From: a virus
Lineage: Duplodnaviria; Heunggongvirae; Uroviricota; Caudoviricetes
Reading direction: 5' to 3' (one strand)
IMG/VR virus record: IMGVR_UViG_2541047766_000005
DNA: 40,812 bases
Below the pieces are notes generated by a model. The model had not been told where the DNA came from, ran no database searches, and saw only the letters and a program-made list of their open reading frames with translations. Made by a program: the position numbers and the translations under genes. Within the stretch, counting starts at the first letter, position 1, and the number at the start of each line of letters is the position of its first letter. Shown in pieces: positions 4,292 to 20,472 of this stretch.

Positions 4292-4843
4292 TCACTCTCC
4301 TTTGATGCGAATGCCTGTTGCAATGCTGTTTATGATGCTGTCAGTGCATGGGGTAGAAAGCTGGGCATCTCCAGCAATTTTCATGACCTCAACATCTGCA
4401 TATCGAATACCGAGGTGTATCAGACCGGCTATACCTGACTTAAGCCGAGCATTTTCCATAAACAGATCCTTTGCCCGCTGTTTTTCTGCCTCAAGCTCAA
4501 CGCGCAGCCTCCCAACCGTAAGCGCAATCTCCTCGTTCTCCTGGTCGCGGCGTTTGATGTACTGCTGGTTTCTTTCCCGTTCATCCAGTAGTGTCAGCAC
4601 GGTAGCCGGATTGGCTGCAGCGATGAATTCAGCATTGGCCTGCTGTTCCATTTGGAAATCTTCATCGAAACCGCTTTCAGGATGCGCTCCTTCAATTCTG
4701 CAAATGGGAATATATCCAGCAGCCTCGCGATGAATTAGCGCATCATCACCATCAAATCGGCCCTCTCCATATTCGAGCGACCACTCGCCACACGTTGCTT
4801 TTTCTGCCTTAGCACGCAGTGCCTGATAATCAATCTTGCTCAC
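4292..4843 (-). CDS. Ead/Ea22-like early protein
   Basis: 183-aa ORF; N-terminus (S)[19 protein letters not shown] resembles the Ead/Ea22 family of lambdoid phages; GTG start 6 nt after GGAGG. Confidence 0.6.
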   Translation of the reverse strand: MSKIDYQALRAKAEKATCGEWSLEYGEGRFDGDDALIHREAAGYIPICRIEGAHPESGFDEDFQMEQQANAEFIAAANPATVLTLLDERERNQQYIKRRDQENEEIALTVGRLRVELEAEKQRAKDLFMENARLKSGIAGLIHLGIRYADVEVMKIAGDAQLSTPCTDSIINSIATGIRIKGE

Positions 4844-5084
4844 TGGTTGCCTCCTGCTTTTCTGCCTTCAACACCATGCGAGAACCATCATCCAGATCCC
4901 ACGCGATCTCACCACCTTCAGCCATGACCAGTCGCCACACCAATTGAGCAGCCTCATTGGTAACATCACGACCTGGATCATTGCCAACGCGCATACGTCC
5001 ACCTTCAACATCGCGCATTTTTGCCAGCATGATAGTTTTTGATAGCGGTGAAAAACCAAGCTGTAGTCGTGCTGAATTACTCAC
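4830..5084 (-). CDS. Hypothetical early protein
   Basis: ORF in leftward operon; likely GTG start at 5084 preceded by AGGAGG (track ORF extends to ATG at 5105). Confidence 0.45.
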
Positions 5085-5244
5085 TGGTTGCCTCCTTTGC
5101 GCCACATCGCATTCAGATATTTGTTGTCATTAACAGAACCGAAACTCTTTCTCTTAAGCAATTCCTCTCTCGATGGCATTGGCTTTACGCGTTGGCGAAT
5201 AATCATTTCTGCCGGAAGAATGCCGGGATTGTATGAAAGTCCTC

Positions 5245-5526
5245 TCATGATTTACTCTCCATGAACTGGTCAACAGCCATGCTAAGTGATACACCTAAAG
5301 TCTCGATATGCTGCTGAATATCCTGTAGCGTCTGCGCCTGAGATAACAGGATTTCACGGTTGCATAACTCTTTGACCAGATGCTCAAACTTGCTGTAATG
5401 ACCGATACGACTTAGTGTTTCTTTCCCTGCATTCTCGCCTTCTTTGATAATTCCTCTTTCGCTAAGAATCAGATCGTGTTTGGTTCCGGTGATAACGTAT
5501 TTGCCGAGGTCGATGTTTAGCTTCAT
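5245..5526 (-). CDS. Hypothetical early protein
   Basis: 93-aa ORF co-oriented with the leftward early operon. Confidence 0.5.
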
Positions 5527-5542
5527 TGTTAATTATTCCATG

Positions 5543-5857
5543 TTAATTTATTCGTATGCCTGCTCTTTCTTCATCGAGTCTTTTTAGCTTGTATCGCATA
5601 GCCCTTACTGAATAAATTGAACGGCAGGTTGCAATTGCTATTTCTTCTGCGGAGAACTTACCGAAAAGTGATACTTCGGCTCTTGTCCAGCGTCTTCCAC
5701 GAAGTCGGCTAACAATGTCAGCACCAATCCTTGTTGCTTTCGCCATTACTGCTTTTTCAGTCCTTTCCAGTTTTTCAGCGATAACTTCAACTGGCATTGT
5801 CGCCGCCACTTCGCGCAAGAAATCGACTTCCCATTTCTCCCATGAAGTCTTTTTCAT
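5543..5857 (-). CDS. Hypothetical early protein with two internally similar helix-rich segments
   Basis: 104-aa ORF, co-oriented, 12 nt after preceding gene. Confidence 0.5.
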   Translation of the reverse strand: MKKTSWEKWEVDFLREVAATMPVEVIAEKLERTEKAVMAKATRIGADIVSRLRGRRWTRAEVSLFGKFSAEEIAIATCRSIYSVRAMRYKLKRLDEERAGIRIN

Positions 5858-16894: not shown

Positions 16895-17079
16895 ACGCCA
16901 CAATTCAAACGATACCAGAGCTTCTTATCCAGACACGAGGCAATCAGACCGAAGTGGCAAGGATGCTTTCCTGCGCAAGAGGAACAGTGCTCAAGTACAA
17001 CCGAGACAGCAAAGGCGAGCGTCACGTAATAGTTAACGGCGTCCTGATGGTCAAACAGGGCAAAAGGGGAAGGCCATGA
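16891..17079 (+). CDS. ninH: NinH
   Basis: 62-aa ORF; ...GNQTEVARMLSCARGTVLKY... resembles lambda NinH. Confidence 0.75.
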   Translation: MNATIQTIPELLIQTRGNQTEVARMLSCARGTVLKYNRDSKGERHVIVNGVLMVKQGKRGRP

Positions 17080-17699
17080 GACTCGAAAGCGTAGCTAAAT
17101 TTCATTCGCCAAAAAGCCCAATGATGAGTGACTCACCACGGGCTACGGCTTCTGACTCTCTTTCCGGTACTGATGTGATGGCTGCTATGGGGATGGCGCA
17201 ATCACAAGCCGGATTCGGTATGGCTGCATTCTGCGGCAAGCACGAACTCAGCCAGAATGACAAACAAAAGGCTATCAACTATCTGATGCAATTTGCACAC
17301 AAGGTATCGGGGAAATATCGTGGTGTGGCAAAGCTCGAAGGAAATACTAAGGCAAAGGTACTGCAAGTGCTCGCAACATTCGCTTATGCGGATTATTGCC
17401 GTAGTGCCGCGACGCCGGGCGCAAGATGCAGAGATTGCCACGGTACAGGCCGTGCGGTTGATATTGCCAAAACAGAGCAGTGGGGGAGAGTTGTTGAGAA
17501 AGAGTGTGGAAGATGCAAAGGCGTCGGCTATTCAAGGATGCCAGCAAGCGCCGCATATCGCGCTGTAACGATGCTAATCCCCAACCTTACCCAACCCACA
17601 TGGTCACGCACTGTTAAGCCGCTGTATGACGCTCTGGTGGTGCAATGCCACAAAGAAGAGTCAATCGCAGACAACATTTTGAATGCGGTCACACGTTAG
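17076..17699 (+). CDS. Q: Late-gene antiterminator Q (lambda type)
   Basis: 207-aa ORF matching lambda Q essentially throughout (MRLESVAKFHSPKSPMMSDSPRATASD...). Confidence 0.93.
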   Translation: MRLESVAKFHSPKSPMMSDSPRATASDSLSGTDVMAAMGMAQSQAGFGMAAFCGKHELSQNDKQKAINYLMQFAHKVSGKYRGVAKLEGNTKAKVLQVLATFAYADYCRSAATPGARCRDCHGTGRAVDIAKTEQWGRVVEKECGRCKGVGYSRMPASAAYRAVTMLIPNLTQPTWSRTVKPLYDALVVQCHKEESIADNILNAVTR

Positions 17700-17742
17700 C
17701 AGCATGATTGCCACGGATGGCAACATATTAACGGCATGATAT

Positions 17743-17770
17743 TGACTTTTTGAATAAAGTTGGGTAAATT
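17743..17770 (+). promoter_or_regulatory. Late promoter pR' (-35 TTGACT, -10 TAAATT) with downstream qut region
   Basis: TTGACT at 17743-17748 and TAAATT at 17765-17770 with 16-bp spacer, lambda-like sequence immediately after Q. Confidence 0.75.
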
Positions 17771-17911
17771 TGACCCAACGATGGGTTAATTCGCTCGTTG
17801 TGGTAGTGAGATGAAAAGAGGCGGCGCTTACTACCGATTCCGCCTAGTTGGTCACTTCGACGTATCGTCTGGAACTCCAACCATCGCAGGCTGAGAGGTC
17901 TGCAAAATGCA

Positions 17912-17969
17912 ATCCCGAAACAGTTCGCAGGTAATAGTTAGAGCCTGCATAACGGTTTCGGGATTTTTT
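17912..17969 (+). terminator. tR' terminator (3' end of the 6S late leader RNA)
   Basis: Long hairpin ATCCCGAAAC...GTTTCGGGAT followed by TTTTTT, as in lambda tR'. Confidence 0.8.
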
Positions 17970-18369
17970 ATATCTGTGCAACAGGTAAGAGCATTCTCCC
18001 TTATGGGGCTTGGCTTAAATGCACCGAGTGCTCTTTCCGTTGTGCTGAATTAAGCGAATACCGGAAGCAGAACCGGATCAACAAATGCGTACAGGCGTCA
18101 TCGCCGCCCAGCAACAGCACAACCCAAACTGAGCCGTAGCCACTGGCTATCCTGAATTCATCAGTGATAGTTACGCTGCGGCCTTCTACACATGACCTTC
18201 GTGAAAGCGGGTGGCAAGAGGCTGCGCTAACAACCTCCTGCCGTTTTGCCCGTGCATATCGGTCACGAACAAATCTGATTACTAAACACAGTAGCCTGGA
18301 TTTGTTCTATCAGTAATCGACCTTATTCCTAATTAAATAGAGCAAATCCCCTCAATGAAGGGGTAGAGC

Positions 18370-18573
18370 ATGTACCGTATGGACAAAATCAGAGAATGGT
18401 TCAGTTACAGCTTCGGAGGACTGACTGCGATGGGTGGCATTCTCTCCCTGAATGACTGGGCTGTCATCATTGGTATTCTTTGTACTGTCGGCACATTTGG
18501 CATCAACTGGTACTACAAGCGCAAAGAGCGCGAGGACAGATTGAATGGCAATGTCACCGGCACTACGAAATAG
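18370..18573 (+). CDS. Pinholin-type holin with dual start (MYRMDK)
   Basis: 67-aa ORF, two transmembrane segments (Gly/Ser-rich TMD1), Met1/Met4 dual start like phage 21 S; immediately upstream of a SAR endolysin. Confidence 0.7.
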
Positions 18574-19048
18574 CGTAATAGCGGCGATAAGTGGCGGGGC
18601 TATTGCTATAGCATCTGTGTTAATCACTGGCCCAAGTGGTAACGATGGTCTGGAAGGTGTCAGTTACATACCATACAAAGATATTGTTGGCGTATGGACT
18701 GTATGTCACGGACACACCGGAAAAGACATTATGCTCGGTAAAACGTATACCGAAGCAGAATGCAAAGCCCTCCTGAATAAAGACCTCGCCACCGTCGCCA
18801 GACAAATTAACCCGTACATCAAAGTCGATATACCGGAAACAACGCGCGGCGCTCTTTACTCGTTCGTCTACAACGTGGGTGCTGGCAATTTCAGAACATC
18901 GACGCTTCTTCGCAAAATAAACCAGGGCGATATCAAGGGCGCATGTGATCAGCTACGGCGCTGGACATACGCTGGCGGTAAGCAATGGAAAGGGCTGATG
19001 ACCCGTCGTGAGATTGAGCGTGAAGTCTGTTTGTGGGGGCAACAATGA
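18545..19048 (+). CDS. SAR endolysin (lysozyme, phage 21 R-like)
   Basis: 167-aa ORF with Gly/Ala-rich signal-anchor-release N-terminus and lysozyme E-x8-D-x5-T catalytic triad ([16 protein letters not shown]). Confidence 0.88.
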
Positions 19049-19136
19049 GCATGATTTGCTTTTTCATGGCAGCGTTGCTCGCATTGAATGGCAACGATGC
19101 GTGGCCGTGGTTTCTGGCCGTTGGGGTGTTGATGTC

Positions 19137-19604
19137 ATGAGTCGGTTAACCGCGATTATCTCCGCTCTGGTTATCTGCATCATCGTCTGCCTGTCATGGG
19201 CTGTTAATCATTACCGTGATAACGCAATCGCCTACAAAGAACAGCGCGATAAAAAAGTCAGTGAGCTGAAGCAGGCGGCTGCCACCATTACTGACATGCA
19301 GCAGCGCCAGCGTGATGCTGATGCGCTCGATGCTAAATACACGAAGGAGTTAGCTGATGCGAAAGCTGAAAATGATGCTCTTCGGCGCAAGCTTGATAAT
19401 GGTGGCAGGGTGCTCGTCAAAGGAAAATGCCCTGTGCCATCCTCAGCCGAAACCTCCAGCGCCTCCGGCATGGGCAATGATGCCACCGTCGAACTCTCTC
19501 CAGTTGCTGGACGAAACGTTCTCGGTATCCGGGACGGAATTATCCGCGACCAAACAGCACTGAGAACGCTTCAGGAATACATCAGGACGCAATGCCTTCG
19601 ATGA
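19137..19604 (+). CDS. Rz: Rz inner-membrane spanin
   Basis: 155-aa ORF from ATG 19137 with N-terminal transmembrane helix and coiled-coil periplasmic region; Rz1 embedded in +1 frame. Confidence 0.8.
19357..19563 (+). CDS. Rz1: Rz1 outer-membrane lipoprotein spanin (embedded in Rz)
   Basis: 68-aa ORF with lipoprotein signal (LIMVAGC lipobox) and proline-rich mature region, wholly inside Rz. Confidence 0.8.
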
Positions 19605-19780
19605 TAGCGATAATTTTACTCATCATCCTTCACATCTGGCTCTGTAGACAGGGTGGTGCTTACTTCTGGAGCGAATCCAGATTAAACATCTCATTGCTGA
19701 TGCTTGAATTTAAGCATATGGCGCGCGGTAAGGGGCTGCGTTGAGACAAGAGCCAGTTCATTACAAATACCAAGATTTTG

Positions 19781-19803
19781 CCTCGCATTCGCGGGGCTTT
19801 TTT
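19781..19803 (+). terminator. Candidate intrinsic terminator downstream of lysis genes
   Basis: CCTCGC-ATTC-GCGGGG hairpin (one G-U pair) followed by CTTTTTT. Confidence 0.4.
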
Positions 19804-19947
19804 ACATCTGAATTTCACCGCGCATCTCACGCGCATATTAACGAGAGCCTTTCAGTAAGCGAGCCTGAGAAATGCCGTTATAGGTGGCGACCTCTCTCGG
19901 GCGGCTTTTCTGTGAGACAGGCTCACTTTCTAAAAGGTAAAGACGCT

Positions 19948-20472
19948 ATGAATAATCCGTCAGTTATTCCGGCCTTTGACTTCCGAGAAATGGTGCAAGC
20001 TAAAAACGGAGAGGTCGTTACCACATCCAGAAAAGTTGCTACGTACTTCGGAAAGCGACACGGTGATGTGCTCAGGAAAATCGAGCAGGTTAAGGCCGAT
20101 TGCTCAAGAGAGTTTAGCCAACGCAATTTTGCGTCGGCTGATTATATCGATGAGCAGGGTAAGGTTCGCCCGATGTATAGCCTGACGAAAGATGGCTGGA
20201 TCATGGTTGTTATGGGATTCACCGGGAAAGCTGCTGCGGCTATCAAAGAAAGCTACATTTCAGCGTTCAACTGGATGTCTGAGCAACTTAGCCGTCGCCT
20301 GGCCATGGGTGAAGAAATGCAGCACCGCTACGCCATCAAAGAAACGCGCTCAAAGTTGAAGGGAACGATCGGTAGCCGGTTGATGAATGAGCGGAAGAAA
20401 GAGAAGCGCGTTCTTGAGCTAGAGCATGAGCACATCATGCAGGTGACGCAGCCAGAATTGCTGATTGGCTGA
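19948..20472 (+). CDS. rha: Rha-family phage regulatory protein
   Basis: 174-aa ORF from ATG 19948; VATYFGKRHGDVLRKIE motif typical of Rha; same position as rha in P22; track ORF has a TTG-initiated extension that spans the terminator-like hairpin. Confidence 0.7.
   Translation: MNNPSVIPAFDFREMVQAKNGEVVTTSRKVATYFGKRHGDVLRKIEQVKADCSREFSQRNFASADYIDEQGKVRPMYSLTKDGWIMVVMGFTGKAAAAIKESYISAFNWMSEQLSRRLAMGEEMQHRYAIKETRSKLKGTIGSRLMNERKKEKRVLELEHEHIMQVTQPELLIG

Follow-up and report, generated by a model that had tools for sequence, protein, structure and literature searches.

A mosaic lysis cassette with a predicted HP1-family holin and an R21-like SAR endolysin in an Escherichia coli prophage

Related lysis systems and the prophage locus

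Phage 21 (reference sequence OL657228) has a holin of about 70 aa with two helices. The holin gene begins with a basic dual start, M-x-x-M-D-K-I, and one Shine-Dalgarno sequence serves both start codons. In the S21-71 product of phage 21, as in S107 of lambda, the longer product with one added basic residue is the antiholin (PMC9636201). An established pathway joins a pinholin to a signal-anchor-release (SAR) endolysin, and it fits all parts of the cassette described here (PMC6139136, PMC9636201). The size, helices and start of the phage 21 holin recur in this cassette, and the spanin genes Rz and Rz1 are embedded in the same way. However, the phage 21 holin belongs to another Pfam family, PF04971, and shows no significant pairwise similarity to the holin found here, which carries PF16080. 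Phage 21 also differs in having another Q gene and tRNA genes in its late leader.

Haemophilus phage HP1 possesses a holin of the same Pfam family as the present one, and its partner is also a SAR endolysin. HP1 Hol is lethal to E. coli but causes neither lysis nor leakage of β-galactosidase, and it is needed for phage release, a pinholin-like phenotype (PMC7312051). When over-expressed, it was reported to have an unusual N-in/C-out topology (PMC7312051). HP1 differs in that Hol has no dual start, that Lys resembles P1 Lyz and not R21, and that the phage is a myovirus in which the genes have another genomic context.

The lysis genes are also found in P22-like Salmonella phages. The gp13-gp19-gp15 cassettes of PS119, ST104, SE1, SPN9CC, Emek, SEN22, BTP1, and PS34 have the same gene order and 92–98% nucleotide identity, and for the isolates Emek, SEN22, and SPN9CC the identity is 96–98%. 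A 93-nt gene of 31 codons, located between the endolysin and Rz genes, is included in the cassettes of Emek, SEN22, BTP1, and PS34. It is absent from phage 21, PS119, ST104, and SPN9CC. Emek also combines the cassette with a lambda-type Q, but it differs in the leader between Q and the holin (annotated as a P22-like qut) and in the 3′ part of Rz. These phages are from Salmonella, whereas the host of the DNA described here is E. coli. The cassette, its proteins, and the cassette type are already known and annotated in the published Salmonella phages, and they also occur in E. coli prophages.

The DNA that was analyzed is a viral stretch of 40,812 nucleotides (IMG/VR record IMGVR_UViG_2541047766_000005), here called the window. 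An earlier note had described positions 18370–19604 as a phage-21-style pinholin and SAR endolysin cassette downstream of a lambda Q/pR′ module. The surrounding 2.7 kb that were queried (17000–19700) are 100% identical to a prophage in E. coli ST3 and in nine other complete genomes. In the PGAP annotation, the surrounding 42.7 kb extend from an integrase gene next to ybhC to a tailspike gene, and they contain genes for a P22-type coat protein and for other virion proteins like those of P22. The phages that best match the window, Kapi1, phiv205-1, and Emek, are members of Lederbergvirus. The annotation and these matches indicate that the segment is the late-control and lysis part of an intact P22-like lambdoid prophage. 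The family and sequence matches of these parts reflect homology and not chance. The features of the region are as follows, all on the plus strand.

17076–17699, +: late antiterminator Q of lambda type, 207 aa (PF03589, E = 1.3e-57; 94–100% nucleotide identity to lambda Q in 50-nt windows)
17742–17770, +: pR′-type late promoter, TTGACT-17-TAAATT (consensus scan; within a stretch 96–100% identical to lambda)
17912–17969, +: homolog of the tR′ (6S RNA) terminator, read from the sequence as a 10-bp outer stem (17912–17921 with 17955–17964) followed by a T-run
17976–18045, +: long conserved hairpin of the late leader (RNA fold, alignment, identity profile)
18348–18363, +: small hairpin, CCCCU/AGGGG, that holds the holin Shine-Dalgarno sequence (alignment and fold)
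18370–18573, +: predicted class II holin of the HP1 family, 67 aa, beginning MYRMDK (PF16080; two helices; M-x-R-M motif)
18545 or 18551–19048, +: SAR endolysin, a GH24 lysozyme and ortholog of R21 and of E. coli RrrD (PF00959, E = 1e-45)
19045–19140, +: tiny gene for a 31-aa protein, predicted to be a helical hairpin (ORF list; conservation)
19137–19604, +: Rz i-spanin, 155 aa, with an N-terminal transmembrane domain (PF03245, E = 5e-29; hydropathy)
19357–19563, +: Rz1 o-spanin, embedded in the +1 frame of Rz (PF06085, E = 3.8e-21; lipobox V-A-G-C in LIMVAGC)
19592–19744, +: hydrophobic ORF of 50 aa that overlaps the end of Rz (phrog_11822, E = 2e-34; hypothetical in PGAP and in Kapi1)
19780–19807, +: terminator-like hairpin and T-run after the lysis block (pattern scan)

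Late control and the mosaic joints

The late control genes and sites upstream of the holin are those of lambda. Q, pR′, and tR′ had been called lambda-like in the earlier note, and this is borne out by the PF03589 match, the promoter hexamers, and 94–100% nucleotide identity to lambda across 17066–17980. The tR′ stretch (17900–17974) is 98–100% identical. The long leader hairpin that follows has a minimum free energy of −30.3 kcal/mol (z = −4.4), and none of 200 shuffled sequences was equally stable. Its lambda counterpart has −33.2 kcal/mol (z = −4.2). The apex of the hairpin, roughly 40 nt at about 17995–18030, is the sole patch between Q and the holin that is not lambda-like. No tRNA genes, which are present in the leaders of phage 21 and Kapi1, were found in the leader here, and no Rfam families were found within 17000–20000.

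From about 18030 the identity of 94–100% to lambda continues to 18352, and 17066–18352 is about 95% identical overall. It is lost by the holin ATG at 18370, and blastn homology stops at 18365. Lambda has a hairpin, CCCCUU...GGGGG, at the equivalent place upstream of S, where the window has CCCCU...AGGGG. From this comparison the left joint with lambda is placed at 18353–18369, inside the hairpin and Shine-Dalgarno sequence directly upstream of the holin ATG. The earlier note had proposed a joint between 17970 and 18370. The lambda similarity does end within that interval, but the joint is localized at its right edge and not spread across it.

Similarity to lambda resumes at about 19140–19385, in the 5′ half of Rz, with 88% identity. 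A second, right-hand joint is thus indicated by the alignment, with the 5′ half of Rz again lambda-like. Between 18353 and about 19136, other sequence stands in place of the lambda S gene for a class I holin with three transmembrane domains and the R gene for a soluble enzyme. The 5′ half of Rz, to about 19385, resembles phage 21 as well as lambda, while its 3′ half and the sequence up to 19802 resemble Kapi1, a Lederbergvirus, in blastn.

Phage 21 matches the window at the nucleotide level in three segments only, 18127–18187 (98%), 18550–19051 (92%, the endolysin gene), and 19147–19384 (89%). Since the match is restricted to these segments, the boundary between holin and endolysin is itself a joint relative to phage 21. 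Salmonella phage SEN22 matches continuously over 18127–19621 with 96% identity.

The spanin genes can be recognized by their families, the transmembrane domain of Rz, and the lipobox of Rz1 as a two-component embedded pair. In phage Emek a terminator is annotated after the Rz gene.

Holin, endolysin, and the proposed lysis pathway

The holin possesses two hydrophobic segments. Segment 1 (W10–L27) contains 50% Gly, Ala, Ser, and Thr and has a mean Kyte-Doolittle value of 1.02, and segment 2 (W30–Y49) contains 30% with a value of 1.34. The same measures for S21 of phage 21 are 55% and 0.52 for segment 1 and 35% and 1.50 for segment 2, so the pattern matches. The membrane anchor of Rz, with 30% and 2.69, is unlike segment 1 of the holin. 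A weakly hydrophobic first transmembrane domain had been claimed, and the composition, which is the only measure used here, agrees. An AlphaFold2 model built with 17 homologs has helices at residues 3–22 and 27–58, with a mean pLDDT of 67, which gives moderate confidence only. The loop between the helices consists of Asn-Asp only and is much shorter than that of S21. With 67 aa, two hydrophobic segments, and two modeled helices, a class I holin is excluded; three transmembrane domains would not fit.

The family of the holin was explored through profile and pairwise comparisons. PF16080 (Phage_holin_2_3) matches it with 75.1 bits, where the cut-off is 28.8 (E = 4.4e-21, profile positions 1–49 of 56), and this family is carried by 44 of 45 database homologs. 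HP1 Hol is 41% identical over 41 aa in BLASTP (E = 5e-6), and hhalign gives this pair a probability of 77% (E = 1.9e-5). PF04971 (Phage_holin_2_1), the family of phage 21 S, reaches 19.5 bits, below its cut-off of 26 (E = 0.001, residues 25–54 only). BLASTP against S21-71 gave 29% identity over 49 aa with gaps, which is not significant (E = 0.27). Direct membership in the S21 family was ruled out on these two results. There was also no S21-type record among the matches listed, which were the best 40 of 109 tblastn hits of the holin.

A more distant relationship to S21 does appear at the profile level. When a profile of the holin subfamily was compared with a profile of 21 proteins of the S21 family, hhalign aligned them end to end over 56 columns with a probability of 95.9% (E = 5.8e-9). 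The score was 45.6. None of 60 column-shuffled controls exceeded 19.6, and a reversed control scored 9.2. These controls rule out an artefact of composition. The comparisons place the holin in the HP1 family, with an S21-like architecture and a relationship to S21 that is remote only. The description "phage-21-style" therefore suits the endolysin, an R21 ortholog, but not the holin, which lies outside the S21 family. It shares its sequence, at 100% identity, with gp13 of the Salmonella phages PS119, ST104, and SPN9CC. We infer the pinholin label from the family and the gene pairing, as class II topology alone is no proof of pinholes.

The holin gene has ATG codons at 18370 (Met1) and 18379 (Met4), and the protein begins M1-Y-R3-M4. 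Across 17 homologs, the most distant with 60% identity, Met1, Arg3, and Met4 never change, and residue 2 can be Y, Q, or H. The Met1/Met4 dual start of the earlier note is therefore present and conserved. More distant holins of the same type begin with MQRM (SPN3UB and RCIP0114) or MKM (UPF_BP1). A G-rich Shine-Dalgarno sequence (18360–18363) precedes the two ATG codons by 6 and 15 nt, respectively. It is likely that both starts are used. By analogy with S21-71 and lambda S107, the Met1 form with its extra Arg3 is a putative antiholin and the Met4 form a putative holin.

It could be instead that only one start codon is used and no antiholin is made, with M-x-R-M kept for another reason, for example as an N-terminal topology signal. 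The Shine-Dalgarno spacing is ideal for Met1 only, gene callers disagree on the start with several database entries beginning at Met4, and HP1 Hol does without a dual start. However, the ribosome-binding site annotated in phage 21 has spacings of 7 and 16 nt to the two starts, the same geometry, and both starts are documented there (PMC9636201). Met1, Arg3, and Met4 are also all invariant while residue 2 varies, and the MQRM and MKM starts recur in distant holins. Use of a single start is considered unlikely, and the dual start is kept in what follows.

The endolysin is identical to R21 of phage 21, and to PDB 3HDE, at 156 of 165 residues (95%). It is nearly identical to the solved structures 3HDE and 3HDF, which match the R21 sequence, and 4ZPU, which is E. 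coli RrrD. The claimed SAR N-terminus is present. The checkable claims of the earlier note thus all held, and neither of the two outcomes it named as refuting, a holin with three transmembrane domains or an endolysin that lacks a SAR domain, was observed. Residues 9–29 contain 57% Gly, Ala, Ser, and Thr compared with 62% in R21, residues 17–30 are identical to R21, and six substitutions all fall in R21 positions 2–14. A segment of 13 residues is unchanged from R21. The residues aligned with Glu35, Asp44, and Thr50 (R21 numbering), which we take to be the catalytic triad of R21, are present and unchanged. A GAGGA sequence is found 8 nt before the ATG at 18545, and because of it the 167-aa form is favored over the PGAP start at 18551. 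The 167-aa form is the one annotated in PS119, Emek, and SEN22, and the SAR helix is the same with either start. The 95% identity to R21 and RrrD suggests that the endolysin would be exported by Sec and released upon collapse of the proton-motive force.

A pathway for lysis can be proposed from these parts. The lambda-type Q, nearly identical to that of lambda, would antiterminate transcription from pR′ through tR′. The holin would be translated from two starts off the one Shine-Dalgarno sequence in the small hairpin, with Met4 giving the active two-helix holin. The Met1 product adds Arg3 and would probably be an antiholin that holds the weakly hydrophobic helix 1 in the membrane, as with S21-71 and S21-68; movement of this helix in the active form is presumed. 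The endolysin would be tethered in an inactive state by its Gly/Ala-rich SAR helix and would build up in the membrane together with holin and antiholin. At the programmed time the holin would depolarize the membrane, most likely via small pinholes. The SAR helix would then leave the bilayer, and the lysozyme would refold and cut the murein. Rz and Rz1 would act last and disrupt the outer membrane.

The hole may possibly be a large one. In that case the holin would be a conventional large-hole class II holin that is located next to a SAR endolysin by chance, and it would make micron-scale lesions with the timing unchanged. Pinhole formation cannot be read from sequence, and the holin falls below the S21-family threshold and has the BLASTP result given above. 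SAR endolysins are also functional with large-hole holins, as is P1 Lyz with LydA. Alleles of the holin and of the endolysin reassort freely, and in 80 viral loci from IMG/VR the R21-like endolysin has an HP1-type, an S21-type, or another holin as its partner. However, HP1 Hol is the nearest relative that has been tested, and it behaves as a pinholin (PMC7312051). Transfer of the mechanism from HP1 Hol is imperfect because Hol has no dual start and has the N-in/C-out topology. The holin is also a remote homolog of S21 over its full length, and it shares the S21-like architecture of a short protein with a SAR-like helix 1, a Gly-rich helix 2, and a basic dual start. A large-hole holin is quite improbable on this evidence.

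A decayed, non-functional prophage remnant is very improbable, since the chromosomal location and two PGAP pseudogenes elsewhere in the prophage are set against intact lysis ORFs, identical holin and endolysin proteins on at least 1,000 contigs each, 96–98% nucleotide identity to the cassettes of phage isolates, and a full prophage gene set from integrase to tailspike. The pinholin pathway is preferred. Taken jointly with that pathway, it is likely that positions 18370–19604 hold the late lysis genes of a P22-like (Lederbergvirus-type) prophage that is intact and integrated beside ybhC in E. coli.

The 31-codon gene and the place of the cassette

The 31-codon gene is coupled to its neighbors. 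Its ends overlap with the endolysin stop and with the Rz start through ATGA sequences. The earlier note does not mention this gene. It is under purifying selection, as it is uninterrupted in 82 loci (23 haplotypes) and its 35 variable sites fall 9, 3, and 23 at codon positions 1, 2, and 3. The product matches phrog_14810, which has no assigned function, and no Pfam or NCBIfam model matched it. In databases it is a "hypothetical protein" found on more than 500 contigs per variant, and in Emek it is orf30. A single-sequence AlphaFold2 model has a helix at residues 2–15, a turn, and a helix at 20–30 (pLDDT 79).

In UPF_BP1, RCIP0114, and SPN3UB, the endolysin gene is directly followed by a gene for a homolog with 43–48% identity, and these homologs share C-x7-A-x2-G-x-D-x-W-x-W. 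In UPF_BP1 and RCIP0114 the homolog abuts Rz, and in SPN3UB Rz is about 300 nt further on. These phages carry other holin and endolysin alleles than the window does, and by inspection all of their endolysin N-termini are of SAR type. The conserved Cys was considered as a possible lipoprotein site; this was ruled out, because only 4–9 residues precede it and leave no room for a signal peptide.

The 80 IMG/VR loci were fetched via the 31-codon ORF, and in 79 of them it follows an R21-like endolysin gene; the holin may be HP1-type (44 loci), S21-type (20), or of another type. The idea that the tiny ORF is strictly tied to SAR endolysins lost support in a scan for the motif GNDGWGW. ORFs of the same shape were found beside ssb and in other non-lysis contexts on high-GC viral contigs, and the family is thus not confined to lysis cassettes.

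The 31-codon gene could be a fifth lysis component, a putative tiny membrane hairpin that is coupled through ATGA and modulates one of two steps, SAR endolysin release or holin triggering. This role is speculative, and we hold it to be rather improbable. To our knowledge, no such tiny-hairpin regulator has been described for R21-type systems.

Among 5,426 complete E. coli genomes, 21 cover at least 80% of the stretch from Q to Rz. The segment with the holin, endolysin, and tiny genes is covered to the same extent in 78 genomes. The order of lambda Q, this holin, R21-like endolysin, tiny ORF, and Rz was found in 22 of the 80 IMG/VR loci, a set that by its retrieval always includes the tiny ORF. 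The proteins identical to the holin and to the endolysin are on public contigs.

The window is an example of textbook lambdoid mosaicism, in which modules are swapped exactly at gene boundaries, and its parts are common to many sequenced phages and prophages. Its significance extends little beyond correct annotation. The holin should be labeled an HP1-family class II holin and probable pinholin, and not an ortholog of S21. NCBI PGAP omits both the Rz1 gene and the 31-codon gene. The 31-codon gene is the sole poorly described part of the cassette. It sits between SAR endolysin and spanin genes in several cassettes that are otherwise different, and it is the element that could repay a simple experiment.

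Prophage end and endolysin start

The integrase end of the prophage was placed as follows.

About 1420-2710 (4420-5686 of locus L006): integrase end of the prophage

The prophage adjoins ybhC though its virion genes are P22-like. The lambda attachment site lies in the neighborhood of ybhC.

The endolysin start on the + strand is ambiguous and could be at either 18545 or 18551. The 167-aa form (MAMSPAL), which would start at 18545, is favored because this ATG is preceded by GAGGA, 8 nt upstream. The PGAP annotation gives a 165-aa endolysin that starts at 18551. In either case, the gene overlaps the 3' end of the holin gene, in a different frame, by 23-29 nt.

Small genes around Rz

A small gene was found on each side of Rz, with a hairpin after the second.

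19045-19140, +: unannotated 31-codon gene between endolysin and Rz, matching phrog_14810
19592-19744, +: 50-aa hydrophobic ORF, phrog_11822 (unknown function)
19780-19797, +: terminator-like hairpin, 3' of the 50-aa ORF

The 31-codon gene overlaps its neighbor at each end through ATGA and is under purifying selection; phrog_14810 also has no assigned function. Homologs lie immediately 3' of SAR endolysin genes in other cassettes, and in high-GC phage contigs they are present in non-lysis contexts too. In the related cassettes of two viral contigs (L125, 1906-2044, and L101, 1837-2041), the endolysin-Rz gap holds extra small hydrophobic ORFs in addition to the tiny gene, which suggests an insertion hot spot for small membrane proteins at this junction. 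The 50-aa ORF shares 13 nt with the end of Rz, and phage Kapi1 has this ORF as well.

Hairpins between tR' and the holin

Two hairpins precede the holin.

17976-18045, +: very stable hairpin just 3' of tR' (-30.3 kcal/mol, z=-4.4)
18348-18369, +: hairpin with the Shine-Dalgarno, upstream of the class II holin

Lambda keeps a counterpart of the first (-33.2 kcal/mol). Both of the two 5'-arm substitutions relative to lambda retain pairing as G-U wobbles. The apex of about 40 nt has been swapped for unrelated sequence. Rfam has no family for this hairpin, and we know of no function for it.

The mosaic joint is located within the second hairpin, and lambda has a hairpin in the same position before S. 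The Shine-Dalgarno hairpin is an inheritance from the lambda leader, so that one translational-control element is common to unrelated holin classes.
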